Source: a virus
Reading direction: 5' to 3' (one strand)
DNA length: 61,742 nt
IMG/VR virus record: IMGVR_UViG_3300037465_000034
Part shown: positions 4,898 through 46,000 of the stretch, one piece after another
How the letters are laid out: the number at the start of each line of letters is the position of its first letter
How positions within the stretch are numbered: the stretch's first letter is position 1
The notes under the pieces: generated by a model
What the model was told of the DNA's origin: nothing
Databases searched by the model: none
The model's input: only the letters and a program-made list of their open reading frames with translations
Program-made: the position numbers and the translations under genes

Positions 4898-6267
4898 CCG
4901 CCGTGGGGGCCGTTGCGGCACCGCCGCCCGCGGCGGCCTCGGCGATACCGCCGGCCACACCGCAGCGCGAGCAGGTGATCAAGGTCGGCAAGGTCTACCT
5001 GCCGCTGTTTGAGAGGGACGAAGCCAAGCGGTATCGCTACTACGTCTACTACGGCGGCCGCGATGCTGGTAAATCGTGGTCGGTCGCCACGGCGCTAGTG
5101 AGCTGGGCGCGCCTTGAGCCACTGCGGATCCTCTGCACACGGGAGATTCAGCGCACGATCGCGGACTCAGTTCACAGGCTGCTGGCGGACACGATCAAGC
5201 GGCTGGAGGTCGAGCATGAGTTCGAGATCACCGACAATTCGATCGCCTGCCGGCTGACGGGCGCGGAGTTCCTGTTCGTGGGATTGCGCGACCAGGACGT
5301 GCACAAAATGAAGTCCTACGAGGGGGTGGATCTGGTGTGGGTCGAAGAGGCGCACACGGTCACCGACCGCTCGTGGACCGTGCTGGTTCATACTATCAGG
5401 CGTGAGGGCTCGGAGATCTGGATCACGTTCAACCCCGAGCTCGACACGGACGCCACATACCAGCGGTTCGTGGTCAGGGGCGCGCCGCGGTCGTTCGCGC
5501 AGAAGGTCACCTGGCGGGACAACCCCTGGCCGTCGGCGGTGCTGGAGGCAGAGCGCGAGCGGATGCGGCGCGAGGATCCGGCCGAGTTCGACAACGTCTA
5601 CGAGGGCAACCCTCGCACGGCGGTGGTTGGCGCGATCTACTCCAAGGAGGTCGCAGCGATGGTGCAGGGCGGGCGGATCCAGCGCCTGCCCTACGACCCG
5701 AAGCTTTTGGTTCACGCGGTATGGGACCTGGGGTGGAACGACCAGACCACGATCGTATTCGCGCAACGGCTGCTATCCGAGGTCAGGGTGATTGACTACG
5801 AGGAGCAGTCGTTCGTCCCGCCAGACGAGTGGGCGATGCGGCTGAAGGCGAAACGCTACAACTACGGCGGGATGTGGCTGCCGCACGATGCCGACCATCA
5901 GCGGCTGGAGGCCAGGGGCGTCTCGTTCAGGGAGCAGATCAGGCCGCTTCTGCCGCCAGGGATTCCGCTGCACATCGTGCCCCGCGTTAACGAGGAGAAC
6001 GACCGCATCAGGGCAGCGCGCATGATGTTCCCGAGGGTCTACATGGACTCCGAAAAATGCGCCCGGCTGCTGGAGTGCCTGAAGCGGTTCCGGCGGGCGG
6101 TGCCCAGGACGACGGGCGAAGAAGGCGATCCGGTGAAGGACGAGTTCAAGCACGGCGCCGATGCGTTCGGGCAGATGGCGATGGTGGTGGACAAGTTCGG
6201 CAACGAAAGGCAGCAAAAGATCGTGGTGCCGGCAAGGCGCATGGCGAATCCGCGGGTGGGCTACTGA
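4894..6267 (+). CDS. terL: Terminase large subunit (PBSX/Terminase_3-like)
   Basis: Walker A YYGGRDAGKSWS, Walker B DLVWVEEA, C-terminal nuclease-like region. ATGA overlap with terS. Confidence 0.9.
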   Translation: MTAVGAVAAPPPAAASAIPPATPQREQVIKVGKVYLPLFERDEAKRYRYYVYYGGRDAGKSWSVATALVSWARLEPLRILCTREIQRTIADSVHRLLADTIKRLEVEHEFEITDNSIACRLTGAEFLFVGLRDQDVHKMKSYEGVDLVWVEEAHTVTDRSWTVLVHTIRREGSEIWITFNPELDTDATYQRFVVRGAPRSFAQKVTWRDNPWPSAVLEAERERMRREDPAEFDNVYEGNPRTAVVGAIYSKEVAAMVQGGRIQRLPYDPKLLVHAVWDLGWNDQTTIVFAQRLLSEVRVIDYEEQSFVPPDEWAMRLKAKRYNYGGMWLPHDADHQRLEARGVSFREQIRPLLPPGIPLHIVPRVNEENDRIRAARMMFPRVYMDSEKCARLLECLKRFRRAVPRTTGEEGDPVKDEFKHGADAFGQMAMVVDKFGNERQQKIVVPARRMANPRVGY

Positions 6268-9371: not shown

Positions 9372-10756
9372 TGAACAAGATCATCGATATCGACGAGCCC
9401 CTCAAGACCGGATACTGCATCCCCGAGTGGCTGCGCGACGAGCAGATCAAGCTCGCGGTCGAGCGCAAGCTCAAAAGCGTCGAGCCGATGGCGGACACTG
9501 ACGAGCCGGTGGCCGTGGTGTGCTTCGGCCCGAGTCTCAAGGATACCTGGGAGGAAATACGCGCGTTCAGGAAGATCATCACCTGCTCCGGCGCGCACAA
9601 GTTCCTGCTCGAGCGCGGCATCGTGCCCACATGGCACCTGGAGGTTGACCCGCGCCAGCACAAGATCGAGCTGCTCGGAGACCCGCACCCCGGGGTGACA
9701 TACCTGCCATCATCGACGTGCCACCCGAAGTATTTCGATCACCTGCTGCAGCACGTTTCGCCAGCGAACGTGAGGATCTGGCACATCTACGAGAACGACT
9801 ACGAGACCGCGATGAAAATGCCGCGCGGCGAGATGGTCATTACGGGCGGCATCGACGCCGGCAAGCGTTGCATGACGATGGCAAGGTTCTTCGGGCACTG
9901 GAACCAGCACATTTTCGGCATGGACGGCTCTTCCTGCGAATGCACCGCCGACGACGTGCCGATAGTCGGCGAGGGCAAGACCAAGCACGCGGCCCCGCAT
10001 CCGGTGCAGGACAAGACCAAATACAACCTGGTGGAGTATCCGAAGGGCTCCGGGCGCTGGTGGCGCACCACGCCGGCGCTGCTGCAGGCGGCCAAGAACA
10101 CCTGGCACGAACTCGACATGATGCCGACGTTGCAGGCTAGCTTCTACGGTCATGGCCTGGTGCAGGAGATGGCGAAGCACTACGTCCGCAAGCATCCGCG
10201 GCCCAGCGCGATCGCCGCCTTCATGCCGAAACTGATCTCCGATGAGTATCGAGAGCTCAACGCCCGGATGCACCGGGAGAACCTGGCATTCGGCGTGGGC
10301 GGCGGCAAGCACGCCGAGACGGTGACGCGGCTCAAGATCAAGACCGGGGCGGCATCGGTGCTGGACTACGGGGCCGGAAAAGGCTATTTGGCAAAGGCGC
10401 TCAAGTTCCCGATCTGGGAATACGACCCCGCGATCCCTGGCAAGGATCACGCGCCTCGGCCGGCCGAGCTGGTCGTGTGCACCGACGTGCTGGAGCACGT
10501 CGAGCCGGATAAGCTGCAAGCCGTGCTGGACGACCTGCGCCGCGTCACCATCAGGATCGGGTTCTTCGTGATCCACACCGGGCCGAGCTCCAAGAACCTG
10601 CCCGACGGGCGCAACGCGCACCTGATCCAGCAGCCCGAGCCGTGGTGGCGCGAGCAGCTTGGGAGGTTTTTCCAGATCGGCGCAATCAATCAGGCTGGGC
10701 CGCTTCTTTACTGCGTCGTGTCGCCGATGATAGCCGCGCAGCGCAAGGTTGCGTAA
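9368..10756 (+). CDS. Fusion protein: Maf/DUF115 (MptE-like) N-terminal domain plus class I SAM methyltransferase C-terminal domain
   Basis: N-terminal part PVAVVCFGPSLKDTWEEIRAFRKIITCSGAHKFLLERGIVPTWHLEVDPR resembles DUF115. C-terminal part has motif I VLDYGAGKGYLAKAL and VVCTDVLEHVEP. ATGA-coupled to the fibre gene. Confidence 0.6.
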   Translation: MMNKIIDIDEPLKTGYCIPEWLRDEQIKLAVERKLKSVEPMADTDEPVAVVCFGPSLKDTWEEIRAFRKIITCSGAHKFLLERGIVPTWHLEVDPRQHKIELLGDPHPGVTYLPSSTCHPKYFDHLLQHVSPANVRIWHIYENDYETAMKMPRGEMVITGGIDAGKRCMTMARFFGHWNQHIFGMDGSSCECTADDVPIVGEGKTKHAAPHPVQDKTKYNLVEYPKGSGRWWRTTPALLQAAKNTWHELDMMPTLQASFYGHGLVQEMAKHYVRKHPRPSAIAAFMPKLISDEYRELNARMHRENLAFGVGGGKHAETVTRLKIKTGAASVLDYGAGKGYLAKALKFPIWEYDPAIPGKDHAPRPAELVVCTDVLEHVEPDKLQAVLDDLRRVTIRIGFFVIHTGPSSKNLPDGRNAHLIQQPEPWWREQLGRFFQIGAINQAGPLLYCVVSPMIAAQRKVA

Positions 10757-10964: not shown

Positions 10965-13232
10965 GTGAGCATCAGGACGACGATGGGCGAGATGGCCGCT
11001 GACGCAGACGCCGGGCCTTCGCTCGAGGACGAGGCCGCCGAGCAAGAGCGCGAGCAGGCGCTCGCGCTGCGCCGGCAGAAACTCGAGGCGCTCGCGCTGT
11101 CGCTCGCCAAATCGCGCAGCGACGCCATTGCGGCGCGCCTGTCCTCGGGCATCGAAACGGAATGGATGCAGGACGAGGAGTATTACGAAGGCATCGACGA
11201 CGCCAACCGCGGCGACATGGCCGCATGGCGCTCCAAGCCCCCAGGCCAGACCACGGAGAGCGCCGAGCAGCGGGCGCAGGCAGCGAGCGTGTTCATCAAC
11301 ATCACGCGCCCCTACGTTGACGCGGCGGCATCCAGGGTGGGCGACATGCTGCTGCCAACGGACGATCGCGCCTGGGAGATCAAGCCCACGCCCATTCCAG
11401 AGCTCGAAGGCATGGCAAAGGGCAACTTCCCGCCGCAGGTGCTGCGCCAGGCGCTCGCCGCGAACAACGGCAACGCCGATTTGGCGAAGGCCCAACTGCA
11501 CAAGGCCGTGGATCAGGCCGTGGCATCGATGACAGAGGCCAGGAAAAGGGCCGCGTCAGCGCAGTCGCAGATAGAGGACTGGCATGTCGAGTGCCAGTTC
11601 CACAACCACGCGCGGCGCGTGATCGACGACGCCGCAAAGGTCGGAAGCGGCGTGCTCAAGGGGCCGTTCCCGACCAGGAACCGCGGGCTCGCGTTCATGG
11701 ATGGCGCGCTGGTGCTCAAGGACGAGATCCAGCCAGCGAGCATCCGGGTAGATTACTGGAATTTCTATCCAGACCCGGCCTGCGGCGAGAACATCCACAA
11801 CGGGTCGCACTGCTGGGAGCGCGACGACATAAGCAAGAAATCCCTCATGGATCTCATCGATCATCCAGGCTACATGGCCGAGGAAATCATGGCCTGCCTG
11901 GAAGAGGGGCCGATGCGAGCCTCGTCGCAGGCGCCGGAGCGCCAGACGCCGAGCGGCCACAAGCCCGACACCAAGTCGATGTTCGAGATCTGGTATTTCC
12001 ACGGATTGCTCGAGCGCGAAGACCTGGACGCGATCGGATGCGAGTGTGAGCCCGGCGAGCATCCGATCGTGGCGGCCGAAGTCACGATGGTGAACAACCG
12101 CATCATCAAGGCCATTCCTTGCACCATTCCCAACGGCGGGCTGCCCTATGACGTAATGGTCTGGCAGCGCCGCGCCGGGAGCTGGGCTGGCATCGGGGTT
12201 GCGCGCCAGATCAGGACGCCGCAGGAGATCGTGGTCGGCGCCGGGCGCAACCTGCTGGACAACGCAGGCCGCGCCGGCGGCCCGCAGCTCGTCATCCAGC
12301 AGGGCATCGTGGTGCCGCACGACGGCATCTACGAAGTCACGCCCTGGAAAATCTGGCTCGCTGGCACCGACGCCGACCTCGAGCACATCGACAAGGCGTT
12401 CCGGTTCGTCACGATCCCGGCGCTGCAGCAGGAGTTGATGGCGATCATCCAGTTGGGGTTGAAGCTCGCCGAGGATGTCACCGGCCTGCCGCTGCTCCTG
12501 CAAGGACAGAAAGGCTCGTCGCCCGAGACGCTGGGCGGCCAGCAGATGGCGATGAACAACGCGAGCTCCGTGCTGCGCCGCGAGGCGAAGTTGTTCGACG
12601 ACCTCATCACCGAGCCGCACATCCGCCGCTACTACGCATTCCTCATGCTCTACGGAGAGGACGAGCACAAGGGCGACTTCCAGATCGACGCGCGCGGGTC
12701 TTCCGCGCTGGTGCAGCGCGACATCGAGAACCAGGCGATCGCCGAGATGGCGAAGGTGGTGGTGAACCCGATCTTCGGTATCGACCCCAAGAAGTGGGCC
12801 GAGGAGTGGCTGAAGTCCAAGCACCTGGACGCGAAGCGGTTCCAGTTCGACGACGAGAAGTGGCAGCAGGTCGTCTCCAACATGGCGAAGGGCGGAGACC
12901 CGCGCCTGGCGGTGGCGCAGTTGCAGGCCGAATTGAAGGTCAAGATCACGCAGATGGAGCAGGCGTTCGAGGCCGATCAGAATAACCGCGACCGCGAGCT
13001 CAAGATGATGGTCGCGCAGATCGACGCGCAGCTCGCGCAGGCGGGCCTCACCAGCGACCAGCAAAAGGTGCTCGCCGAGATCAAGGGCAGGCTCTCCGAC
13101 ACCGTGCTGCGGCTGCGTGCCCAGCGCGAGATGCAGATCGCCGACCAGCAACAGGAGCGCGCGATCCAGGTCATCGAACCCAGGGCAGAACCCAAGGGCA
13201 AGGCTCCCGACGGCAAGGCTTTCATCCAATGA
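10965..13232 (+). CDS. Portal protein
   Basis: 755 aa. GTG start after GGAGGG. Acidic N-terminus followed by EWMQDEEYYEGIDD. Size and position upstream of scaffold and capsid genes. Confidence 0.75.
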   Translation: MSIRTTMGEMAADADAGPSLEDEAAEQEREQALALRRQKLEALALSLAKSRSDAIAARLSSGIETEWMQDEEYYEGIDDANRGDMAAWRSKPPGQTTESAEQRAQAASVFINITRPYVDAAASRVGDMLLPTDDRAWEIKPTPIPELEGMAKGNFPPQVLRQALAANNGNADLAKAQLHKAVDQAVASMTEARKRAASAQSQIEDWHVECQFHNHARRVIDDAAKVGSGVLKGPFPTRNRGLAFMDGALVLKDEIQPASIRVDYWNFYPDPACGENIHNGSHCWERDDISKKSLMDLIDHPGYMAEEIMACLEEGPMRASSQAPERQTPSGHKPDTKSMFEIWYFHGLLEREDLDAIGCECEPGEHPIVAAEVTMVNNRIIKAIPCTIPNGGLPYDVMVWQRRAGSWAGIGVARQIRTPQEIVVGAGRNLLDNAGRAGGPQLVIQQGIVVPHDGIYEVTPWKIWLAGTDADLEHIDKAFRFVTIPALQQELMAIIQLGLKLAEDVTGLPLLLQGQKGSSPETLGGQQMAMNNASSVLRREAKLFDDLITEPHIRRYYAFLMLYGEDEHKGDFQIDARGSSALVQRDIENQAIAEMAKVVVNPIFGIDPKKWAEEWLKSKHLDAKRFQFDDEKWQQVVSNMAKGGDPRLAVAQLQAELKVKITQMEQAFEADQNNRDRELKMMVAQIDAQLAQAGLTSDQQKVLAEIKGRLSDTVLRLRAQREMQIADQQQERAIQVIEPRAEPKGKAPDGKAFIQ

Positions 13233-14696: not shown

Positions 14697-15749
14697 ATGG
14701 CTCAGCAGGCATACAACACCCCGACCGCCGCACGAATCGGGGCAGTGAAAGGCGAGATCCTCGCCCACGCGGCGCCGGTGGAAGTGCTGGGGATCACCGG
14801 CGAGCAGAAAAAGCTCGGCAAGAATCAGAGCGACACCATCAAGTTCCGGCGCTGGCTGCCCTACGGCGGCACCACGGCGAGCGCGAACACGATCAACCGC
14901 TGGGTCGTGGACGCAAGCGCCCATGTCCTGACGGAAGGCGTGACGCCGGCCGCGGACACGCTCTCGGCGCAGGACATCACCGTCACCATCCAGCAATACG
15001 GGTGCCTCTATCAGATCACCGACAAGGCGTTCGACCTCTACGAGGACGACATCGCCGGCGAGATGAGAAAGCAGGTCGGCGAGCGCATGGGCCTGGTGCG
15101 CGAGCTGGTGCGCTACGGCGAAGTGAAGGCGGGAACCAACGTCTTCTACGCCGGCGGCACAAGCCGCGTGACGGTGAACGCGAAGATCAACCTGAACACC
15201 ATCCGGCGCGCGACGCGGAACCTCCGCGCCAACCACGCCGACATGGTGACCAGGGTGCTCTCGCCATCGCAGATGGTGGGCACCGCCCCCGTGGAAGCCG
15301 GGTTTCTCGTATTCGTGCACAGCGATGCCGAGCCAGACATCCGCGATCTGCCGGGCTTCAAGCACTGCTCGGAATACGGGCAGAGGAAGCCCGTGCATCC
15401 GAACGAAGTGGGGTCGGTCGAGACGTTCCGCTTCGTCATCAGCCCCGAGCTCGCGTCCTACCCGGATGCGGCGACCTCGGTGACGGCCTCGACCTTCGGC
15501 CTTTACTCGACCACCGGCACCAACCCGGACGTCTACCCGTTCATCGTGTGCGGCGAGATGGCCTGGGCGCAGGTGTCGATGCGCTCGGTGGACGGCCTGG
15601 ACCTCACCTGGATCCCGCCCGGCCAGAAGGACAAGAACGACCCGCTCGGGCAACGCGGCTACGTCGGCGCGACGCACTACCACGCCGTCAAGATCACCAA
15701 CCAGGGCTGGATGGCGGTGATCGAAGCGGGAGTCTCGGCCCTGACGTAA
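14697..15749 (+). CDS. Major capsid protein
   Basis: 350 aa. Strong SD aaaggaga. Position after the scaffold gene. N-terminus ...GKNQSDTIKFRRWLPYGG resembles N4 gp56-type capsid proteins from memory. Confidence 0.8.
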   Translation: MAQQAYNTPTAARIGAVKGEILAHAAPVEVLGITGEQKKLGKNQSDTIKFRRWLPYGGTTASANTINRWVVDASAHVLTEGVTPAADTLSAQDITVTIQQYGCLYQITDKAFDLYEDDIAGEMRKQVGERMGLVRELVRYGEVKAGTNVFYAGGTSRVTVNAKINLNTIRRATRNLRANHADMVTRVLSPSQMVGTAPVEAGFLVFVHSDAEPDIRDLPGFKHCSEYGQRKPVHPNEVGSVETFRFVISPELASYPDAATSVTASTFGLYSTTGTNPDVYPFIVCGEMAWAQVSMRSVDGLDLTWIPPGQKDKNDPLGQRGYVGATHYHAVKITNQGWMAVIEAGVSALT

Positions 15750-31018: not shown

Positions 31019-34000
31019 ATGGGCGCGTTCGACGACTACCTGAACGGGAAGCCGCCGGCCGAGCCGGCGAAGCCTTCTGGCGCCTTCGATCAGATGGTCG
31101 CTGCCGATTCGCAGCGCGGCGACTTCTGGCGCGCGGTCAAGCAGACCTATCAGCAGGTTCCCGAGCTGGCCTACGGCATCACCGCGCTCGGCGCCTCGGC
31201 GATCGAGACTGCGATGGGCGAGGGCGGGCTTGCCACTTCGGCCAAGAATTGGTCGGTCGGCAAGATGCTGGAATGGAAGCACGCCATTCAGGAAACCTCT
31301 AAGGAGAGCGACGACATCAATTTCTCCTGGGAGCGCGCGCGCGAGGGCGATTACGGCGCCCTCGTCGATTGGCTGCAATACGGCGTCGGCTACGGTGTGG
31401 GGCAGGCCAGCCAGATCCTCGCCACCGCAGGGGTTGGGGCCATCGCCGGCAAGATCGGTCTGCGCGCCGCTGTGGACAGGTTCGCGGCTCCCTTGGTCGA
31501 GAAGGAGGCCGAGAGGCTGGTCATGGCCTCGATGGCCGAGAAGGGCGGCAAGGCCACCGCTGAGCAGATCGCCAAGGCGGCAGCCCTGCCGGAAGTCAGG
31601 AAAGCTGCGGTCGGCAGGCTTGCGAGTCAGGCTGGGGCGATCGGTGCCACCGGCGCCTACGCCTTCGGCATGGAGGGTGGTGAGATCGGCGGCGACGTCG
31701 CCGAAAGCAGTGTTTCACGTGGAACACAGCTCACCGGGTCCGAGCTCGCCAAGGCGTTCGGGGCCACCATGCTGGCAGGCACGGTCGAGTTCGCAGGCGA
31801 CCTGCTGGGCCTTGGGGCCATGATGGGCAAGATCCCGGTCGGCAGGAGGCTTGCCGAGGCCACCGGGTTGAAGGGTCGCGCCGCGCGCGGGATCGTTGGT
31901 GGCGCGATGGTTGCGCCGGCCGAGGGGGCGCAGGAGTTCTTTCAGACCGGCATCGAGGAGTGGGGCAAGGGCAAAGAGGAAAGCATGTTGCCCTGGGAAC
32001 AATCCCCAGAAAATCAGCGCCAGGCGTTGAATGCAGCCGCGCTAGGCTTCGTAGCCGGCGGGGTAATGGGTGGGGGTGGTGGCGTCCTGCGGGCCGCAGA
32101 AAAGGCCCGTGGCAGGCCGTTCGTGCCAGCACCAGCCAGGACTGCAGGCGAGACGATTGCGCCGATTCTGGATGCTCCTGACGTGCAGTCGGCCGTGGAT
32201 GCAGCCACGGCCGCCTACGAAAGCGATGTTGGCGCCTCGATCATCGCGCAGGTTCAGGACACCGAGTCGATTCAGGACGGCATCACGCTGGCGGTGGGCG
32301 CGGCGCGCGACGCCGCGGAGCGCGCCGCAACCTCCGGCTTCGCCTACCGCCAGCACCTTGAGCAGCAGGCAGACGCCGCCATAGCCGAGAGCCTCGGCCT
32401 CGAGGCGCGCCAGGCAGCCGAGGAAGCCGCAAGGCCCAAGACGGCCATGCAGCTCGCGCTGGAACGCGCCTTCCAGGTCGCCGCGGAACGTCCGGCCAAG
32501 GCTGCTGCTGCGCCCACCGCTGGCAGGCCAAGCACCAGCGAGGCGAAAGCCTTCGGGCGGCAGATCAAGGAATTGAGCGACGAGGAGCTGGCCGACGTCG
32601 CCGAGCGGCACACCATGTCCGCGCAGCGCGAGGCGGCGCGCGCCGAGTTGACGCACCGCACCGCGGTGCTGATGGCGCGCATCCCCGAGGAAAAGCCCCC
32701 GGAGAAGCAAGCGGCGCCGCCTGTGAGGATCTACGGGCAGTTGCCCGAGGACATGAGCCTCACGCAGTTGCAGAGTGCCGCGCAGCTCCTGCCCAACGGC
32801 AAGCCAAAGAACGTGGCGTTCGCCTATCAAGCTGCTGCGGCACAACGCGAGCTGGCGTTCCGCGAGAAGGTCGGCCAGATCTTCGAGGGCAAGACGGTGG
32901 AGCAGATGTCGGTGGCCGCGCTCGATCGCCTGATCGCCAACCCGACCGCCAAGCGCCAGTTGAAGCTGTTCGCGCAGGCCGAGAAGCGCCGCCGCGCCAA
33001 GGCCGACGCCGACATTCGCCGCCGCATCGCCAACCCCGGCATCGCCGATGAGCTGAAGGCATTCGCCGCTGAAGCCGGATGGGCTCAGAAGGGCGGGTTC
33101 TTGGTGAGGTCCAAGCGCAGCGAGCGCGCGGGCGACGAAACCGTGACCCGCACGCAATGGATCCCGCGGGCAGAGTGGTGGAGAGGCCGCCCTGTCGCCG
33201 AGAACGAGGACTTCTACCGGAAGGCCGTTGCCGACGCCATAGCAGGCAAGCCGTTGGGCGAGAAGCAGAAGCGGGTGGTGAATTTCCTTCTCGGCATGGC
33301 CGAGGAGGTCGGCAGGATGCTGGCCGAAGCCGATGTCGATGGAGTCGTGGACCAGGGGCTGGGGTTCAGCGTGGAAGATGACATGACCCATGAGTCCGTA
33401 GACTTGGCGATCGAGCGCGCCGATCGGCATTTCACCGAGGTCAAAGGACAGATCACGAAGGAGGAAGCCGATGCAATCGAAGACAGGCTCTTTGGGGCCG
33501 ACACGCGACCTGCCGTTCGGCGTGAGGAAGCTCGCGCGGCAGCTATTCCGGCGGAAGCTCGAACAGAACGGGTTGTTGAAGGACAGCGACGCGAACCTGC
33601 CGCCGCAGCCCCGGCAGAGCGAGGCCCGCCTGCCGCAGAAGCCGGCGCAGAACGAGGCAAGATCGTTGTCGCCGGAAAGCCAGCGGCCGGAGGAGTGAGC
33701 GGCGAGCCTGCATCGGATGAGCGCATCGCCGCCGCCAAGCGCAACCTGCGGAAGGCCTTGGACGGCAAACAGGCGTGGGAAGTTCCGCTCAAGAAGTGGG
33801 CGGCAGCGCACGACGCCTATCTCGAGGAGGCGTTCGGCGCCGGTCCAGAGGTTCCAAGGGAAAACGACGAAGAGATCGCCACGCAGCACCTTGAGCACAT
33901 CGAAAGCGCGATCGAGAACGCGCACAAGCCGCCGCGCGCCGCGCTGGCGAGCCACAAGGACATCGACGCCAAGGAGTTCCCGAGGGCGGCCGCGCTCTGG

Positions 34001-37000
34001 AATGAGTATTTCGGCCAACCAAAAGAGAAGGGGGCTGCAGATGCCAGCGCAATACGAAAGGATCAGGGACAGCTATTTGCGGGCGGGCAAGCCGAAGAAA
34101 GAGGCGAAGCGGCTCGCGGCGATGACCTACAACGCGCACCGGCCGAAGGGGGCGAAGCCCGTGGGGCCGCACAGCGACAAGAAGGGGCTCGTCCAGAAGG
34201 CGATGAAGTAGGGTCGAAGGCATGGTATGCCGCCTTACGTCGTGCTGCTCACCAAAATGAGTCGAGGCCCAAAGGCAAGCCCAGCTTGAGCAACAACCTG
34301 GTGCTGGCCTTGATGAGCTTCGCCGACGCAGATAGCAGATGGGCCGAACGCTTCTCATCTGGAAGGACTGACGATGAGTTGAGGCTTGACATCGGCCACG
34401 AGTTCGGCATGCAGGGCGGCGGTTATTCCCAGGCGCACAAGGGCGGCGAAAATCCCAAGTTTTATTTCAGCGCCGAGGGACACATACCAGTAGCGCACGG
34501 CAAGCCTACGCTGCAAGGCAAGGCTCTGATCGACGCGGTGCGGGCATTGTTCAAGATCCCGAAGCGCAAGGCGCAGGCAGCGCAGGTCGAGCGCCGCGTC
34601 GAGCCTACGCCAGAACAACAGGCGATGCTCGATTACGAGCGTGAGTTCGAGGAGGACATTGCCGGTCGCCGCGAGATCGCGCCTGATGATGCCGGGCTCG
34701 ATGAGCAGGCCATGCAGCGCGAGGAGGCAGAGGCAGAGGCGCAGCCGACCAAGCCCACTCCGAAAGCCGAGTCGCGGATCGAGCGCATGCGCGCGGTGGA
34801 TTCCGCCTTGATGGAAGGCGACATCAATTCCGTGGTCGAGTGGATGCGCGACGGCTTCGACGCCACGATCGTCATGGACGCGATTCGCGGCCTTGCCGAG
34901 ACGACGGCCTGGCCGGAGCGGCTGGCCTATGTAGCGAACAGGGCGGCAGAAGTGCTGCGGAGCGCCGATGAGAATGGCGTCGCCGATCTCGCCGAGCGCA
35001 TCCTCAAGCGCGGCTGGACCTACACGACGCACCAGGTCAAGAAGGGCGCGAAGCCTGATGACGTTGACGCCTGGGAGGCGCACCTAGCGCGCCGCAAGGC
35101 ACTGGCAGCGCGCCGCGCCGACATCGACGGGCTGCTCGAGCGCCGCGCCATGAAGCTCGTCGAGGACCGGCTCTACGAGAAGCGCATCAAGCCCGGCGAC
35201 ATGGTTACCTTCAACGCCACAGTCTACGACCGCTACGGCGAAGCGCGCGAGCGCACGACCGCGGAGCTTCGCAAGGGCGTCGGCGGCTATGCGATGAGCG
35301 GCATCGACACCGGCGGCGGCATCCTCAACATCGGCACCGAGGATGTTAGATACCTGACGAAGGCGAGCGAGACGGATCTCGCCGCGCTGCGCGAGCGCGA
35401 GCGGCAGGCATTTATGGAGCAGGACACAGGCGCGGCTCTCGAACGCCTGCGCGCGCCGGAGGGCGTCGGGATCCTGAAAGGCACCGAGTCGGCTGGCACT
35501 CCTGCCGCCCAGCAGCGGTGGATGACGTCGGAAGCTCTCGGCTCCGTCGATGGCATCGTTCTCGGCTACGCCGATGTTCAAGGCACGGATCGCGTCATCT
35601 TCCAGACCGACGATGGCAACCGCTACCTACTGGCACCGCACAGCCTGTTCCCGGTGGAAACAGGTGGCGAGCAGGTCATCCCGCAGCCCTACGCTTCCGG
35701 CATGAGCCGACGACGCGACATGAGGGCCGCGATCGAAAGCGCGGTCGGCGTCGGGGTGGCGGCTGCCTCGGAGAAGCCTGCTCTCGGCGCGAATGTTGAT
35801 GAAACCGTCCTGGCTCGCTACCTGCTCGCCGAGGCGCGCGTCGGCAACCGGATGATGGGGCCGCTCATCATCGACCGGATCTATGGGCCGGAGCATGGCG
35901 AGATGCGCCAGCGCATCATGCAGCGGCTCACCGGCGAGAATGTGTCCAAGGAGAAGTCTGGCGTCGGCGTGGTCAAGGCAGCCCTGTTCAAGCACTTCGG
36001 CATCCAGGGGGATTCGGAGCGCGCGCGCGAGGAGGCGCTGCAGGAAACTCTGGAACGCCTGGCTTACGGCGGGAAGACCGAGCGCGAGGCGCTGGATGCG
36101 GGCTGGGCGAATCTGAGCGCGGAAGAGCGCGCCCAGGTCGAGCGCGAGGTCGGCAGGCACCGCTTCGATGAGAACGCAGTCACCTGGATGCAGGGCGCCC
36201 GCGAGGGCGTCCAGAAGTGGCTGGCATCGGTCAGCGAGTCGGTCAGGGCGGCCTTCCGCAAGTTCGTCGCCTTTCTCGCCGCCGTTGCAGTGGCGCTCAA
36301 CGTCAGCACCGTGCAGGAGGCCGACGCTGTAGCGAGGCCCGCCGCGCAGCAGCAGGAAGTGACGGTGCGCGAGCTGGTCGAAAGACCGAAGGCCGACTTC
36401 GGCTACGCGCGGCCCGGCTGGGCCGCTCGCCTCACGGCCAACTGGATCATGGCAAGCGGCGCTCACGAAGGTCGCAGCTTCCTCGTCGCCGACAAGAACG
36501 CCGGCACGCTCTACGCTTTCGGCTCAGACGGCAAGCTGATCGAGCAGACTGCGGCGCTCTACGGCGAATCGAAGGCAGACGAGTTGACACCAGAGCAGTG
36601 GAAGGTGTCGGTGGACAAGATGCGGACCGCCGACAAGGTGACGCCTGCAGGGCGCTGGACGGTCGGCCTGCAGCCAGATTCCGAGCGCGGCTGGACGATG
36701 GACTTCGAGGGCGGCGAGGGGCTGGCGATCCACGCGGTCTACCTCGGCAACCCGAAAGAGACGCGCGCGCAGCGGCTTGTCACCGAGACGGCCGAGGACA
36801 ACTTCATCACCTACGGCTGCATCAACGTGCCGAAGGACTACTTCGAGCGCGTGCTCAAGCCCAACTTCGGCGACAAGCACGGGCTTTTCATCATTCCGCA
36901 CCAGGAGGCCAATACCGAGCGGGTGCTGGGGATCGTGGCCGCCGACATGGCGCCGCAGCTCGTCGAGCGCAAGGTGACGCTGCCTGCCGGCGCGCCGAAG

Positions 37001-40000
37001 CGCGAGAGGCCATCCGGCCGCCGCCGCAGCAAGGGCAAGTTCCGGTCGCGCGATCTGGACGCGCTCGGCGCGAAGGAGCGCGCCGCTGCCGAGCGCCAGA
37101 TCGAGCGCCGCGGCGCCGACGCTGCGCGCCTGGCGCAGCAACTCGAGCTGCATCAGGGAACGCCGTGGGCGAAGCAGACCATTCAGGGCTTGATCGTCAG
37201 GGCCGCGATCGACGAATACGTCGCTGGGCGCACGCCCGACTTCGCCTCGATGCTGGACAGTCCGCATACGACGAACGCCAAAGCCGCCGCCAAGGCCGGC
37301 GTGGATGGCATCTGGCGCTATCTCATGCAGCGCGGCCTGATCGGCGAGGCTGGCAAGCCAGCGAACAGCGTCAATTCCAGCTTCGCCAACTGCACGCCGT
37401 CGGCCGACTGCGCGAGATTCTGCTACGCGGCGACCGGCAACTACACGGCGCCGAATCCGATCGTGAAGTCGGAGCTAACGAGCTGGGCCGTGGAGAACAA
37501 CCCGCAGCGCGCCGGCGACCAGATCGCGCACGAATACAAGACCACCGCCGAGTTCTACGTCAAGAAGGCACTGCGCCTGTTTGACAAGGGCGACGGCACG
37601 ATGAATTGGATCCCTGTGATACAGCGCCTGAACGCGCATGGTATCCGGGTTCAGGTGTTCAGCAAGAACCCCGACTTTTTGCGCGCCGTGCCGAAGATGA
37701 ACCTGCGGCTGCTCTCTGCCGACAAGTCCAACCTGGGGATGGTGCGGGCCAACCCTGATCTGCCGGTCGCCTTCGTCTACTCGGATGCAAGCCAGATTGC
37801 CTTCCTCAACGAGATCCGCGACCGCGTGCAGGTCATCCTGCCAATTAAGCTCGGGTCGAGACTGCTCTCGAAGGCCGAACTCGAAGAGCTGCCGGCCTGG
37901 ACGCGGCCCTACCAATGCCCGGTCAACAACGGCCACCGCAAGATTGGCCGCCAGCCGAATCAGTGGACCTGCGGGCGCTGCGACTACCGCGGCGGGGTTG
38001 GGTGCTTCTACGGCACGCCCAGCGCGAAGGCGTTGGAGGCGATTGATCGCCCAGCGGAGTATGATAGCGAAACCAGGTCGCTAGTTGAGGAGTTGACCCA
38101 TGCGAGCCGACAGCTCAGACCGACAGAACGTCGAAAACTACTTGGAGAGATCGATCGCCTCATATCTGCAATACGGGCTGGCGTTGACATCGGAACAGCG
38201 GGCGGCAGTGCGCGCGAAAATGCTGCGGCGGTTCAAGGAGATGATCGAGGGCTGGGACGAGGTGTCTATCCGATCACTTTCCATCCCTCCCGAGTTCGTG
38301 AAACTCGCCCCGAAGCGGATCTTGCGCGGTTTGAGGGAGAGGGCGGACGACTAGGGGCCGAGCGTGAGGTATCCGAAGATCAAGGAGAAGCGCCTCCTGG
38401 CGCGCGCGAACCGGCCGCCGAAGGTGGGGACGTTTACTCCGTCGCCGCGCTACAGGGTGCGCCGGGCGAAGCAGCGCAGGCCAGTGACGACCAACTCAAG
38501 CTGACCGTCGCCGAAGGCGGCACAGCAGCTCGCTTCAGCCTCGAGGATGGCGCCGCAGAGAGCGTCGGCGCAAGGCTGCTGGGAAGCGTCGTCACAAAAA
38601 CCGGGGAGCCGTGGCTGCGACCGGGCGATGAGAAGCGCGTCTATCACGGCACCAGTAGGTCATTCAATAACTTCGAGGCTCAATACGGTCTGCCGTGGTT
38701 CTATTTCTCGGAAAAGCACGAGATGGCAGAGAAGTTCGCTGCCTCAGACGAGCCCATTCCGCCGACACCAGACAAGCCGGAGCGCCCAGCAGATCGCAAG
38801 GTGACGATCGCAACGAAGGACGGCCCCGCCAATGTTGATGCATGGGACGTTGGCGTGCCCGGTCTTGTCGTCACCTATCAAGTGAAGTCTGGCTTATACA
38901 GCGTCACGCACGAGGCATCAGGATACGCCGCTGGTGGCGCATCCGAGTATTTCGTCGCCGTCATGGAAGCAGCCAGGCGGCTTGGCAGAGCTGGCAAGAA
39001 GCTCGGTGTCGATTGGAGGCGTGGCGCAGAGTTCTTAGACGCGCTGCCGCGAGACGAAAAGCGCAAGCTGGCCGTCGCTGCTCGCATTGTCGAGCCCGAG
39101 CAGCCAGACCCAATCGCCGCGATGTTCGGCTACAAGGGCCGCGCTGGCATCGGCGTCGGCAGCAACATTCGCCCGGCTTACCTTGCGATCAAGAAACCGA
39201 TCGATCTGCGCGGATTGCGCGGCGGCACGCATCAGACGCCGAGGCAATTGCTGGAAGCTCTAGCCAGTCACGGCATCAACCTGACGATTCGGGACATGCC
39301 GTTCTCGCATCGCAAGGTCTATCAGATGCTCAACAGTCCTAGCGTGGCCGAAAAGATCATGGCGGTGGCCCAGGAGCGCGGATACGACGGCCTGATTTTC
39401 AACGACGAGTTCGATGCCAGGCTGAAGGCCGTCAGTTACATCGTGTTCAGTCCGTCCCAGGTGATCCCGGCGTTCGTGCCGCGTTTCAGCCGCAACGAGC
39501 GCGGGTCAGAACTAGAGCGCCGCGGCGCGCGCGTCGCGGCGATGGTGAAGGCGCTGGAGAAGCGCGTCGATCGCGCCTATCGGCGTGGCGATCCTCGCGC
39601 AGAGGATTGGGACGCCATTCTCTCGGAGCTCAAAGCCATTGAGGAAGGCATCGCCGAGGCGCTGCAGGAGGGCTCGGTCGAGGATGTTGGCGAGCCATCT
39701 GCCGATGATGTTGGAGAACCCGCAGGCATCGAAGAGAACCTTGTCAGGTTGTATTGGGAATACCTGCAGGGCGGCCTGGTGCGCGGCGGGGAGCAGGAAA
39801 CCATAGCCGCCATGCGTGATGCGCTGTTCGCGCCCGAGGGCATCGTCGGATCAACGAAGATGCAGCCGCGCACAGACGCGACGGATGAAGAAGTTCTGGC
39901 TGCGGCGAAGGATGCGTTCGAGGCATGGGCGGCGCGACAGGCGCGCAATGCCGGCGCCTACTACACCACCGACGCCAAGGGCCAGCCGCTCTTGCACCTG

Positions 40001-43000
40001 GACACGGTGCAGCTCGTCGATCCACAGCCATTCCCTGGCGCGGTGCGCGGCGGGCAGGCCTACCAGCACTCGATCTACCGCGACGGCAGGCCGGTGGGCG
40101 TTGTGTCGCTGGTGTGGGAGCAGGGGCGCGTCAAGTCGCTCTTGCACATCCTCACCTACGACGAGGAGCAGGGCCGCGGGGTGGCGGAAGCGGTGGTGCG
40201 TGGCATCCTCATGCACAACCGCGGCGGGCTGCACATCATGTCGATTCAGGACACGGCGCGCGGCTTTTGGGAGAAAATGGGGACTGAGTATCTGGAGACC
40301 GAGGGGACAGAACCCGATGGCTACATCACACCGGAGAGTTACCGTGCAGCGCGGGGTGCTGAGGGAGATCAGGAGGCGCGACGCAGAGCGCGCGAAGCGG
40401 GAACGCGCCCAGCCGCCGTCGGAGAAGGCGCGCCTCGACCTGGCGACGCTCGATTCTCTCCGGCAGACGAAGCACTAGATGTAGACCGCGCGCTCAACGA
40501 CATCCGCCGTGCCGGCACCACAAGATATGACGAGCAGGCACAAAGCGACCTCGCCGTCCTTGAGCGCGAGCTGGGGCCGTTCAGTTCGACGGGTCGGGTT
40601 CCTCGCGGTCTTTACAGACCTGTTCGCCTGCCTGACGATTCATACCTTCAGGAGCTCGCCGGGACCTTCGGAAGGCGAGTCCTCGGGATCAGCTTCGACG
40701 AATCCAGAGCACCACCGAATTCCCCGCTTCTGACGGATTGGCAGGGCGTCAGCGTCGGCGCCGATTCCGGCATCATCGGCATCCGCTACGGCGCGAGGCG
40801 CCCGTCGATCGCGCTCACCATGCACGAACTGTCGCATGAGATTGAGCGCGAGGATCCCGAGACGTTCAACGAGCTGGTCGAGGCGCTGCGGCCATATATC
40901 CGCCAGGAGGAATACGGCCGGCGCTTTGCTGCCGTATATCGCGGGATGCCGGATGCCCGCATTCGCGGCGAATTTGTCGCGGAGGTGATGAGCGACGGCG
41001 CGATGTATCCCAAGTTTTGGGATTACGTCGGCCAATACAGCCCGGAGCTTCTGAGAAAGCTGGTCGGCGCCGTGCGCCGGCTGCTCGATCGCGTGGCGCG
41101 CGGGCTGGGCATGGGCTACAAGTGGAAGACCGCGCAATACGTCACCGACTTCGACGCCGTGATGAACGAGGCGGCGCGCGCCCTCGCCAAGTATCACGAC
41201 AAGCGCGCTCTCGCCGATATGCAGCGCGCCGAAGAGCGGCGGCATCCTGCCTTCCAGCGCGACGACCTGCCTGCGATGGACCTGGACGCGGACCGCCCGT
41301 TCCAGACCGTGGACAGAATCGAGGACATCGAGTGGAAGGAGATGATGGATTACTTCTCGGCGAACGTGAACGAGCGCCGGGTGCTGATCTACAAGCCGAT
41401 GCTGCCCGAGGATCTGACGTTATCGAAGGCGCACCGTGGTGGCGGAAGAACATGGTGGCACGCCGTCGTGGCGGGCAGCAGCAAGCACCTGAGAAACGGC
41501 GGCAAGGCTGACAGCTTCGAGGATGCCGCGCGCATCGCCTGGGAAGCATTGACACTGCTACCGCCGGTTACTGACACGGTAGAGACCCGCTCTGCGATGT
41601 ATAGCAAGCGCATGGTGGCGAAAATGGGTGGGCGCCGTGGCAAGCAATACGGCTATTACCACCGCAACACCGGCCGCGAGTCCGAATACATCGAGGGCGA
41701 AGAGCTGGTCGATGGCGTGGAGCCTAGCGAAGGCGACATCGAGCGCGGGCCAGACTTCTCGCGCGAAGGCACGGCAGCGCCAGTCTTCTACTACGCGCTG
41801 GACCGCCAGCTCGTCGCCTCTCCCATGAAGGCCGGCCCGGCGAAAGCCTGGCGCGACTACATCAAGGGATTGGTAGCGAAGGGTCTTGTCAAGCAGGACG
41901 AGGTTAATTGGAGCGGCATCGACGACCTGCTGCAAATCGACACCGAAGGGCATCGCATCCAGCGCGAAGAGCTGCTGTTCTACCTGCGCCAGATGAACAA
42001 GGAGATCGGGGATGTCGTCGCCGGCGAAGCCATTGACGCAGAATTCGAGGGTGGTGGTGCGCCAAGCGCCGCCCACAGGGCCAGCAATAAGGTGAATGAG
42101 CTGCGAGTTCAGCTCGATGCGCTGGGCTATGACGTAGAGTTCGAGGCGAACGGCCCGGACGCCGGGATGCCGCTTTATGTGCTCCGGCGCTCGGATAGGT
42201 CGGCGTTCTCGTTCGGTGACAGGTTCGCGCTCGGAGACGCGCTGCACGTTGATGAGCTGCCAGACGGCCCGCGTGAACTCGCCGAAGATATTTATCAGGA
42301 GGCGCAAAAAGCCTTGGAGGACGAGGACGGAATCGTCGCCCAACACCAGCAATCGTTGCAACCAAGGTATGTGAAGACGCGCTACGAGACCTACGGCCTG
42401 CCGGGATCTGAGCCGGGCACCTACCGCGAGATCCTGATGACGCTGCCATCGTTCACGATGGAAGGCGTCGCTGGCCGCGTCGTGTTCGAGGGGCGCTGGC
42501 GGGAAGCTGTCGTCGATGAGTTCATGAGCGAGATCGCCGAAGAGCATCCAGAGGTGTATTTGGCGGCCATCGAGGAAGATGGCGTTCGGAACATCGTCGA
42601 GTTCAGTGGGGCAGGAGAAACAGCGCGCGACAGCATCGACAATTTCGCCAGGATGAATAGTGGCGATGTCACCTACACGAAGGGCGCTGGCCCGGTGCCG
42701 ATGTTCACTTCAGCCCACTGGCAGCAAGGCAACGTCGTGGCGCACATCCGCGCCGATGTCGTGAAGGCCGAGGATGGCAAGAGCTATCTGCGCGTGATCG
42801 AGATTCAGTCCGATTGGGCTCAGCGCGCGCGCAAAGTCAGAAAGCAAGAGGTCGTCCGCGTCGCCACTGAAAAAGGCATCAGCCGCGAGGAAGCCGACAA
42901 GCTGGTGGCGAGGGACTTCGGATTCTCCGAGCCCCGAGCGATCAGGGACGCTTCTGACAAGGTGATCGTCACCGAGCGCCACTACCGCGATCTCGTCAAG

Positions 43001-46000
43001 AAAATGCTCGCTCAGATCACCGAGCACGACTACTTCGGCTTCGAGGATGAACATGGGGCTTTGGAGGACATCACCTACAATCCGATCACCTGGGAGCAGA
43101 GTTGGCAGACTCAGCGTAAAGTCGTCCCCGCTGAGTTCCGTCGCCTCGCCAAGGAATATCTTGAAGCCTACGATGCGTGGCGGCGGGCGACGCGCGAACA
43201 GGTTGCGATCTCGCCGTATCCTAAGGCGCCGTTCGTGGACAAGACAGAGGCGTGGGTGTCGCTCGCGGTCAAGCGCGCGCTGCGCTACGCCGCCGACAAG
43301 GGGCTCGCAGGCGTGGTCTTCGCCAGCGGCAAGCAGAATCTTTCCCTCTACGAAGGCATCCGACGGCGGGTCAAGCGCATCGAGTGGCAGCCGGAGAAGA
43401 GGCAGCTCAACATCGTGTTCAAGCCAACCCGCGACGGGCATGGTCTGCAAAACGCGGAGCCCGACCGCCTGGTAGAAGCTGTCGGCCCCAAGGAGTTGCC
43501 GGAATACGTTGGCGAGAACATCGCCAAGCAACTGCTCGAGCCAACACCATCCGCAGGCACGGATGCCTTCAACGTGACCAAGAAGGATGGTTCGGTGTGG
43601 CGCGTTGTCGAGGGCGAGAAGCTTCGTGTCGGCGGCGAAGGGCTAGTAGCTTTCTACGACAAGCTGCTGCCAGCCGTCGCATCCGGCGTCGTGAGGAAAC
43701 TCGGCGGCAAGCTCTCCAAGGTGACGACGCAAAAGAAAGAAGGATCGCCGCTCGCCAAAAAAGAGATGACCGATACGGTGGTCGCCTATATGGCAGGGGA
43801 CATCAGCGCAGAGGAATTCATCGACAACACCGGCTTGAACATGACGGTGAGCGACGTCGAGGCGGACGAGGACATGAATGGAGCATGGGACAGGCACGAC
43901 GCGCGAACGAGGACAGTCGCCAAAACGATAGCCAATCGCCTCACGCGGCAACACGGCCCCGCGCGCTCAACGACTTACAACGCGGTCGAGCTCACGCCGG
44001 AGATGCGCGACAAGGCGCTGGGCGGCCTGCCGGCGTTCAGCCCATACTACACGCCAGATCTAAAGATGCGCCTGGCCAAGGGTAGAGAATCGCCAGATGA
44101 GTGGGTGAAAGGGTTGCAGAAAAAATACCCGGTGACCTGGCGCGAAGTCGGCGAGCGCGAGCTGAATTCACTTGAGCGCGAGATCGGGCTGCGCCCGATC
44201 CCGTCCGAGCATGAACCAGGCCACGGCCCTGCGCTCGAGGACAGGTATGCGTCGTTCAGGTGGGTGACGGATGCGCGCTACGCGCTACGAAACGCCGGGG
44301 AACCGGAGCCTCCGGCCGGCATCGAGCGGCCGTTGTTCAGCCGCGAGGAGCGCGAGCCGCGCGAGGCCGCGCCAGTGGCGGCTGGGATTCGCAAGAAGTT
44401 CGAGACGGCCGGAAATTTTGACAAGACGACCATCAGGCAATACGACGACTACGTTGCCGGTGCGCCAGAGCTGGCGTCGGCGCAAGCCGGGCCGATCACC
44501 GTTCGCGTGATGCGTGACACCAATGGCATCTGGTTCGGGCCAGGCTATTTCATACTCACGCACCGCGACTTTCCGCAATACCCGGTGCCGGCGCACAGGT
44601 GGATGGACGAGTGGGAACCCTATATGCAGTCCGTCGAGGGCGTCTCCCGGGCCGACTACGCGAAACTGCCGCAGGAGGAGCGCGCGGCGATCGAGGCCAG
44701 ACGCCAGGCGAGGACCTACGCAGAGAAGCAATTCTTCGGCGATCTGGCCGAGTTCTACTGGAACGACAGGTGGCAAAAGCGCCTCGACGAGAAGTTCAAG
44801 AAGCGCACACAAGGAGTCGCCGGCCACGATTGGGTCAAGGCCCGCAGCGCCGCCGAGAACGACTACTGGAAGGCGCTGGTCTACGACGAGCTGGGCCAGC
44901 GCGCGTTCACGCCGCACGACTACCCGCCGGCCGACAAGCCGAATCATCCAGTGCGGAAGATCGTCCACGGCATCAAGGACAACATGGAGTCCGCGATTCG
45001 CGAGGCTCGCGCCATGATCGCGGAGAAAGGCTGGAAGTCCGTCGCCGAGGCCTTCTCCTGGTTTAGCGATGATCGCTCTCACGGCGGCGAGGACGTAGCC
45101 GAGGCCGCGCGCGCTGTGGTCAAGCAGTTCGGCGGCACCGAAAGCACGGCGGACCCCTTCGATTTCGTGACGCGAGTCCTGACTGACGCTGAGGCCGAGC
45201 CTGTTCTGAGCGCCTACACCGAGGCCGAGCTGCGCGCCAAGGAGCGCCGCGAGAAGGAAGGCAAGCCGGTGCCGACGCCGACCACGGGACCGGAGCCGCC
45301 ACTGCTGACGACGCCAGAAGGCGTGGCGCCCGCGCGCTTTGGAGAGGTGCCGAAGAGCCCGACCGGTCAGGGCAGCCTGTTCAGCCGCGAGACGAGGCGC
45401 GCCCGGCGCCGTGGATCCGATGTGCGATTCAGCCCGATGGAGGCGATCGGTGCGAGCGGTGTGCGCGGCGACCACGAGGACGGCCTGGCGCGTCGCGGCA
45501 GCAATTTCGTGCGCGACCTGCTGCACAGCTCGGGCAAGTTGTCCTGGTGGTCCAGAACCGTCGGCACTCCGCAGCACGTTGCCGAGACGAACGCCGAGTT
45601 CCGGCCCGTGTTCGACGAGGGGCAAGCCTTCATTCACGACGTCAGCCGCTTCGCCAACGAGGCCGCTGACGCCGCGAACGGGGATCCGAACGACCCGAAC
45701 GCCATGCACATCCTCCCTCGCATCGAGCAGTTCATGGACTTCCTCAAGAAGCACGCCAGCAACGAGGACCAGGAGCGGGTCATGGGCGCGCTGATGACGG
45801 GAACGCTGTGGGGCGGCGGCGACCCGCTGCAGGGCCGTATCTGGACCGACGAGGAGCTGCGCGCCGGCAGGGAGGTCGATGGCGACATCCGCCTGCCGGC
45901 CTTCACGCCGATGACGGAGGCGCAGATCAAGCTCTACCGCCAGGCGCTCAACTCGACGCGCGTGAGCTTGGACAACACCGCGAAGTCGATGATCGCGCGC

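Follow-up and report, generated by a model that had tools for sequence, protein, structure and literature searches.

We analysed a 61,742-nucleotide stretch of viral DNA (IMG/VR virus record IMGVR_UViG_3300037465_000034; hereafter the window), a tailed-phage genome with a GC content of ~65%. On its + strand, a giant gene of 5767 codons in the open reading frame (ORF) list runs from 31019 to 48322 with zero stops in its frame, and a small ORF, s2, lies wholly inside it in the +1 frame. As it carries an ART-PolyVal domain (PF18760; 41.9 bits against a Pfam cut-off of 31.2), the giant ORF encodes a polyvalent protein as defined by Iyer et al. 2017 (PMC5512222). The s2 coding sequence (34041-34211, + strand) consists of 56 codons plus a TAG, with the ATG at 34041-34043 and the stop at 34209-34211, and its product is MPAQYERIRDSYLRAGKPKKEAKRLAAMTYNAHRPKGAKPVGPHSDKKGLVQKAMK. 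A Shine-Dalgarno (SD) sequence, AAGGGGG (34028-34034, + strand), precedes the start with a 6-nucleotide (nt) spacer and provides Lys-Gly codons to the giant frame. Across the same bases (34040-34213, + strand), the giant frame reads DASAIRKDQGQLFAGGQAEERGEAARGDDLQRAPAEGGEARGAAQRQEGARPEGDEVG, a low-complexity stretch rich in Ala, Gly, Glu, and Arg. The SD, the start, the stop, the spacer, and the frame had been listed in an original prediction of s2, and all were correct when checked on the sequence. The comparisons described below suggest that s2 is very probably a real, independently translated gene in the +1 frame of a giant polyvalent gene.

Codon usage differs between the two frames of the overlap. 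Fifty-one of the 56 s2 codons end in G or C and a single one ends in T, versus 26 G/C-ending codons out of 58 in the giant frame over the same bases and a fraction of 0.80 over the giant ORF as a whole. Windowed third-position GC content (GC3) stands at 0.95 for the s2 frame against ~0.5 for the giant one, and a codon-usage log-odds scan chose the +1 frame across 33990-34290. Further upstream (33700-34000), GC3 of the giant frame is 0.72-0.95, and the +1 frame before the s2 ATG is rich in Arg, Ser, Thr, and Pro. The original prediction had drawn attention to the G/C-ending codons of s2, to the A/T-ending codons of the giant frame over s2, and to the Arg/Ser/Thr/Pro reading upstream of the ATG, and our counts and translations agree. 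It had also stated that the giant-frame bias returns directly after the TAG. This point did not hold: the bias returns at ~34286, after ~75 nt in which the giant frame is open but poorly biased (34212-34285, + strand; GC3 of 0.54 at 34180-34299). This segment, delimited by the GC3 profile, the sequence, and the gene calls on a relative (L004), looks like former intergenic or linker sequence.

Composition by itself leaves s2 undecided, or no better than chance. At a GC content of 65%, it is not uncommon for a +1 frame to stay open over 56 codons. Moreover, a linker rich in Ala, Gly, Glu, and Pro can mimic a +1 signal because the third position of +1 codons is the first position of giant codons. 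We take the significance of s2 to come from homology and from comparative data.

The s2 protein used as a query retrieved 22 called small proteins of 53-72 amino acids (aa), with 46-98% identity and E values from 2.6e-28 to 3e-4. Eleven residues are invariant in 23 sequences: M1, P2, Q4, Y5, I8, Y12, G16, A22, A27, T29, and Y30. When 1.84 billion cluster representatives were searched with a profile, 391 clusters (50% identity) matched at E<=1e-3, nearly all of them 45-100 aa long and with alignments that start at residue 1. At the DNA level, scans of viral contigs gave 12 loci, and a metagenome scan gave 198 confirmed stretches, with 80 loci fetched (loci are named below with the prefix L). 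Free-standing homologues with stops in both other frames were found on contigs of uncultivated phages, within phage operons, in L001, L005, L007, L010, L012, L013, L015, and others. The free copy of L001 lies among small genes near a DNA polymerase, that of L005 is the last of the structural block, and that of L007 precedes an adaptor-like gene; a homologue also adjoins the portal in L093, the large terminase in L053, and virion proteins in L010. The L023 copy, on a contig with a GC content of 0.38 (versus 0.65 in the window), is 71% identical to the s2 protein. The original prediction had argued that a free-standing homologue would prove s2 to be a gene and that a lack of homologues would speak against it. 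Such homologues exist as separate genes, and the significant matches in the s2 frame, together with the comparative alignments, support s2 as a real small gene.

Searches of family databases gave little. Pfam holds no family for s2 and its relatives, NCBIfam holds none for s2, and in PHROGs the only match of s2 was a weak one of its N-terminus to phrog_32268 (E 0.0034). A tblastn search with three family members against cultured phages found Thermus phiYS40/TMA alone, and there the N-terminus only. We found no close DNA relatives of the window among GenBank phages, and a genome (prophage) scan for s2 gave 3 contigs of metagenome-assembled genomes only and hence no host assignment. Judged by sequence, s2 is a member of a large, widespread, unnamed family of small basic phage proteins.

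In 25 further loci (~18 dereplicated lineages), the s2 homologue lies within a long ORF, whose length ranges from 529 codons to over 3131. Nesting is in the +1 frame throughout and never in the other frame. The conserved pair Met28-Thr29 (ATG ACN) yields a TGA in the remaining frame, so that, by sequence logic, +1 is the sole nesting frame possible. Nested lineages span GC contents of 0.36-0.66; at the lower end, the host ORF of L074 (GC 0.36) has 2528 codons. The host ORFs of the nested relatives occupy the same place as that of the window, as the last gene of the structural block, and the host sequences that flank s2 are mosaic and mostly unrelated on both sides. All nested relatives have similar Gly/Glu/Gln/Pro-rich readings of the overlap, with linker-like low-complexity flanks. 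L004, which comes from another sample and is nearly identical, runs colinear with 33974-34954 of the window and likewise has an open giant frame; therefore, the arrangement in the window is not an assembly artefact.

The s2 module is also found at the head of a larger protein. In P0096 (L108 8001-9854), it is fused in frame to an InPase domain (PF18823, E 4e-47), and AAA_34/Helicase_C_4 genes follow. The locus looks like a polyvalent array broken into separate genes, with s2 at its head. By sequence, the s2 gene appears in three states: free-standing, nested in +1, and as an N-terminal in-frame fusion to polyvalent-type modules.

We compared selection on both frames in 19 nested and 42 free copies. 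Mean amino-acid identity in the s2 frame was 0.62 in nested and in free copies, and position 3 was the most variable in both. On the contrary, host-frame identity among the nested copies was 0.38. The mean pairwise difference between nested copies at s2 codon positions 1/2/3 was 0.33/0.29/0.49. The original prediction had named a lack of purifying selection on the +1 frame among the findings that would refute the gene, and both the codon-position pattern and the difference between 0.62 and 0.38 indicate that the s2 frame is under such selection. The near-identical L004 gave a similar picture: over s2 and its leader, the window and L004 differ by 1 mismatch in 238 positions, versus 32 in 743 downstream (Fisher p=0.0016). 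These 32 differences (window 34212-34954 versus L004 239-981, 96.6% identical) are distributed 10/10/12 over giant codon positions 1/2/3. As the downstream differences are not only more frequent but spread evenly over the giant codon positions, s2 is more constrained than its host. The giant protein at 34212-34954 therefore evolves near-neutrally or under diversifying selection, as expected of a conflict effector.

The host frame crosses s2 without a stop, and we calculated how often this would happen by chance by redrawing synonymous codons from each host's usage while keeping the s2 protein fixed. The probability of an open host frame was 0.11 in the window and <=0.006 in L016, L019, L023, L058, L072, L074, L090, and L097. 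Third positions of s2 are T in 3% of codons in nested copies versus 16% in free copies, and G in 48% versus 32%. The comparison shows s2 as the older, sequence-constrained reading and the giant frame as a permissive read-through, held open by synonymous choice in s2, where T is avoided and G favoured.

How would ribosomes reach s2? With -10.8 kcal/mol, the SD:anti-SD duplex of s2 ranks among the top 1% of all positions along the giant ORF, and in 16 of the 19 nested homologues the SD is in the top 5%, with the same spacing. The remaining three, which lack a strong SD, are on low-GC contigs and have A-rich leaders (L058 1644-1666, L074 9981-10003, L097 260-282); such leaders without an SD would be in keeping with hosts whose translation does not start from an SD. 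Start and stop codons of s2 are intact in all 19 nested lineages examined, and the same SD-ATG is in use in the free-standing copies. Near s2, scans of the + strand found no promoter and no terminator, a scan for RNA structure found nothing significant (z=0.03), and Rfam gave a single match, far below threshold and outside s2; these scans thus give no hint of a transcript of its own or of an RNA element on this strand. An SD-ATG that would let ribosomes re-initiate in the giant frame once s2 has ended was found neither in the window nor generally in the relatives. In L016 (~10150-10180), AAGGTGA has an ATG behind it, in frame with the long ORF and 5 nt past the s2 stop, a possible re-initiation site for a separate product downstream. 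From the conserved SD and ATG we infer that independent initiation on a late mRNA is the best-supported mechanism.

According to this mechanism, one late mRNA would bear both genes. Ribosomes that start at 31019 would read 34040-34213 in the giant frame and produce an Ala/Gly/Glu/Arg linker between modules, while other ribosomes would load at the internal AAGGGGG and translate from the ATG at 34041 to the TAG ending at 34211, giving a 6.3-kDa basic protein. The two products would be distinguishable. Tryptic peptides of s2 include IRDSYLR and LAAMTYNAHRPK, and 34040-34213 in the giant frame encodes the peptide DQGQLFAGGQAEER. The genes can also be separated by mutation: T34042C changes the s2 ATG to ACG and the giant-frame GAT to GAC, which is silent (Asp).

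The s2 protein (6.3 kDa) has a pI of 10.5. In its AlphaFold2 model, two confidently predicted helices (residues 3-14 and 19-33, pLDDT above 90) form a hairpin, and the basic tail, made up of Lys, Pro, and Gly, is disordered; the description of s2 as a basic helical protein in the original prediction is thus borne out by the calculated pI and by the model. The top fold match for s2 in BFVD is A0MNI6 (phiYS40 ORF168). The turn and helix 2 carry the motif G16-K-(S/P)-x-K-E-A-K-K-L-A-A, which resembles the GxGxSKKxAKxxAA at the helix 2 start of the double-stranded RNA-binding domain (dsRBD, PF00035). However, the matches are not significant and the s2 model has two helices and no beta-sheet: a PDB sequence profile gave a weak, sub-threshold match to a Loquacious dsRBD (E=1.2), and PF00035 did not match s2 itself and matched 2 of 29 family members, with a best E of 0.018. 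We rejected s2 as a dsRBD on account of its all-helical model, which lacks the alpha-beta-beta-beta-alpha fold, and of scores below the Pfam threshold. The resemblance is a mere lead that may point towards binding of a nucleic-acid backbone. In the giant frame, the overlap (A12 G11 E8 R7 Q6 D5 of 58 residues) is presumably a flexible linker between modules.

Could the window contain ordinary adjacent genes instead, an upstream gene, s2, and a downstream gene that starts at about the TTG at 34286, with the giant frame open merely through the GC-rich third positions of s2? Several observations weigh against nesting and most of them fit this alternative. The host frame of the window itself would be open by chance about one time in ten, so the case for a selected read-through rests on the relatives and not on the window. 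Giant-frame codon bias is poor from 34041 to ~34285, and the poor bias at 34212-34285 is what separate genes would predict. In L004, a short fragment, the gene caller splits the region into s2 and a gene starting at the TTG equivalent to 34286, and in L064 the homologous long protein is broken into two ORFs. In addition, the nested loci came from searches with s2, which makes the nested proportion subject to ascertainment. As to function, no significant match supports any role for s2: there is no Pfam or NCBIfam family and only the weak PHROG match, and Foldseek found nothing at E<=0.001 in BFVD or PDB, a two-helix hairpin being too small for an informative fold search. Separate genes nevertheless seem improbable. 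The giant frame has no stop from 31019 to 48322, so ribosomes on its well-biased upstream part must read through s2; L004, an independent relative, is colinear and open too; low-GC phages share the arrangement at a chance openness of <=0.005 (for example, the 2528-codon ORF at GC 0.36); and the avoidance of T at third positions is specific to nested copies.

The remaining alternatives accept the giant frame but differ on s2. We consider it very unlikely that s2 is reached by programmed frameshifting, either by a prfB-like +1 shift out of the giant frame immediately upstream, stimulated by AAGGGGG, whose product would be a shortened N-terminal protein ending in s2, or by starting at s2 and shifting -1 into the giant frame, whose product would begin with s2 and continue downstream as in P0096. 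An SD-like element does lie immediately upstream of s2, and in-frame s2-InPase fusions are known (P0096). Furthermore, 4 of 19 nested copies (L023, L061, L074, L085) have the slippery-type heptamer G GGA AAG at codons 15-17 of s2, versus 1 of 40 free copies (L052). This heptamer is built from the invariant Gly16-Lys17 and may simply be a by-product of third-position G enrichment; heptamers are present in 8 of the 19 nested copies, at varying sites. A prfB-type +1 shift was rejected because the giant frame has no stop and 34028-34041 contains no CUU-U type site, and a -1 shift because the window's s2 has no X XXY YYZ heptamer, none is conserved in the relatives, and the RNA structure is not significant. 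The start codon and Met1-Pro2 are invariant, the family starts at residue 1, the free-standing copies share the SD-ATG, and in L016 and L018 an s2-frame stop lies only 7 codons ahead of the ATG, all of which argues against entry into s2 by a shift. Alternatively, s2 could be a fossil, a once free gene engulfed by the giant ORF and now silent linker DNA. The giant-frame reading is plausible as a disordered linker, yet starts and stops are intact in 19 of 19 nested lineages, strong SDs are kept in 16, and nested copies are conserved as well as free ones (0.62), with the same position-3-biased substitutions. Moreover, nowhere are the window and L004 more alike than across s2, and the adjoining host protein changes equally at all codon positions. 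There is only a slight chance that s2 is silent. Finally, the +1 signal could be a compositional artefact of an Ala/Gly/Glu/Arg-rich linker, with no gene present. Linkers do raise apparent +1 GC3, several stretches of this kind have nothing else in their favour, s1 and s4 as sister candidates are unproven, and s3 has no homologues. Against this stand highly significant homologues that are translated in the s2 frame, among them free-standing genes as well as copies at GC 0.36-0.44; the nested loci, the 391 clusters, and the selection pattern already refute the artefact, and we regard it as barely credible.

With s2 taken as a nested and independently translated gene, the arrangement can be compared with known systems. 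The Rz/Rz1 spanin genes of lambda, T7 (18.5/18.7), and many other phages were reportedly treated by Summer et al. in J Mol Biol in 2007. As with Rz/Rz1, s2 is a small gene wholly inside a larger one on the same strand, in +1, with its own ribosome-binding site, and the embedded, overlapped, and separated forms there recall the nested, free, and fused states of the s2 family. A small ORF within a larger one on the same strand in +1 was found here and in 25 related loci, an initiation signal of its own is present at the sequence level, and both frames are maintained, yet the host amino-acid sequence itself is unconserved (0.38). The differences are that the s2 host is a 5767-aa polyvalent virion protein versus a 150-aa i-spanin, that the host reading over s2 is an unconserved linker and not a functional domain, and that s2 hosts in different phages are mostly non-homologous. 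A role of s2 as an o-spanin (Rz1) was rejected: it has no signal peptide or hydrophobic N-terminus, no lipobox Cys and indeed no Cys, and its model is a soluble hairpin. The s2/giant pair is of the Rz/Rz1 type in architecture, and s2 is not a spanin.

Small phages contain overprinted genes, such as E in D and B in A, as well as K, in phiX174, and L in MS2. Like these, s2 and its host use the same bases in two frames, one reading being constrained and the other compositionally odd or disordered. However, the embedded ORF is classically young and poorly conserved, whereas s2 is embedded yet old and conserved, with free homologues, and here the long ORF is the overlaid reading. Overprinted genes are reviewed in PMC8227390. 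Polyvalent proteins of phages and conjugative elements have been described by Iyer et al. 2017 (PMC5512222), who list InPase as restricted to phage-type polyvalent proteins. The s2 host resembles them in its giant size, its several domains, its mosaic make-up, its place in the late/virion block, and its diagnostic ART-PolyVal domain; elsewhere s2 is fused to InPase. A gene in another frame nested in a polyvalent gene is outside the concept as described; the words 'overlapping' and 'frameshift' are absent from the text of PMC5512222, and a literature search found no paper that links polyvalent proteins with overlapping genes. The sole cultured-phage relative of s2 is ORF168 of Thermus phage phiYS40/TMA (YP_874181, 361 aa, phrog_32268), whose first ~35 residues match s2 (PHROG E 0.0034; tblastn 41-53% identity). 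In ORF168, a hypothetical protein, the s2 module makes up the N-terminus; unlike s2, it is not nested, and no function is annotated.

The giant gene closes the virion/late block of the window. The large terminase (4894-6267), the portal/adaptor (10965-13232), the major head protein (14697-15749), and tail-fibre-like genes all lie upstream of it on the + strand. Besides ART-PolyVal, Pfam gave only a weak GP88 match on the giant protein. By eye, we spotted a HELSHE motif that resembles those of zinc peptidases and could bear on the processing metallopeptidase (MPTase) trait of polyvalent proteins (family searches gave no match to the motif), an H...GC(I/V)N motif that recalls L,D-transpeptidases, and hydrophobic segments close to both ends of the protein. 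A search of viral contigs found no relatives of the flank downstream of s2. In L100-L102, the N-terminal 846 aa of the giant protein are shared and s2 is absent; these loci gave no presence/absence pair for s2 in which both flanks are conserved.

The giant ORF contains further +1 signals. A second codon-bias switch, s1, lies at 33471-33698. At L100 6578-6736, a +1 ORF has M.S.T...R.LP..VRKLARQL in common with s1, and the giant frame aligns there as well; s1 may be a compositional artefact, the giant reading there being an Ala/Glu/Arg/Pro-rich linker. Within the giant ORF, no other +1 codon-usage signal is as strong or as long as that of s3 (38100-38354, plus 38364-38504), an 84-aa +1 ORF that begins MRADSSDRQNVENYLERS and has no homologues in a search of 5.8 billion proteins. 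A fourth switch, s4 (40290-40530), lies at the tail of an ORF at 39816-40478 and is seen in composition only. Comparison of s1, s3, and s4 with all fetched loci gave nothing significant. Giant ORFs of related phages also contain high-GC3 +1 stretches with Met-start small ORFs (L045 10834-10977, L048 6250-6417, L101 4568-4873, L017 11372-11812), again by composition only.

How did the nested arrangement arise? A nearest-neighbour comparison grouped L016-19, L072, and L085 in one all-nested clade. For several other nested copies, the closest relatives are free-standing (0.72-0.80 identity), and in L030 and L095 a free-standing s2 lies beside giant genes that are homologous to nested hosts. The mixture of nested and free neighbours, L030 and L095, and the absence of s2 from L100 thus suggest that nesting was gained or lost several times, or moved by module recombination. 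Because it is the s2 reading that is conserved, in contrast to that of the host, the overlaid gene is the giant one and not s2. It would appear that giant genes grew or fused across a resident small gene, and did so several times. This is the reverse of overprinting: an old, conserved gene persists within a younger read-through frame, and the cost of nesting is borne by synonymous sites, with T shunned and G over-represented in the third codon position.

That s2 is nested time and again in giant genes that are mosaic and unrelated, and that it is fused to InPase, points to a functional tie with injected polyvalent effectors, and this tie is open to a direct test, since T34042C removes the s2 start and leaves the giant protein unchanged. 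We can only suggest tentatively that s2 acts as a partner of polyvalent proteins that binds nucleic acids or is associated with the virion. Equally speculative is the wider proposal that giant polyvalent genes engulf resident small genes, which would stay active in their linkers, with s2 as a dedicated polyvalent partner. If this were true, s2 could serve as a chaperone, as a module for packaging or an N-terminal leader, or as a factor that is co-injected and binds nucleic acids, to name some examples, and the free, nested +1, and in-frame fused architectures would be ways to tune stoichiometry. Nested members of the family are invisible to standard gene callers: on the public source contig (Logan SRR12687342), gene calling gives a single 5767-residue product and no s2. 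On the same proposal, s1, s3, and s4 would be further nested cases, and polyvalent genes would systematically hide unannotated phage genes.

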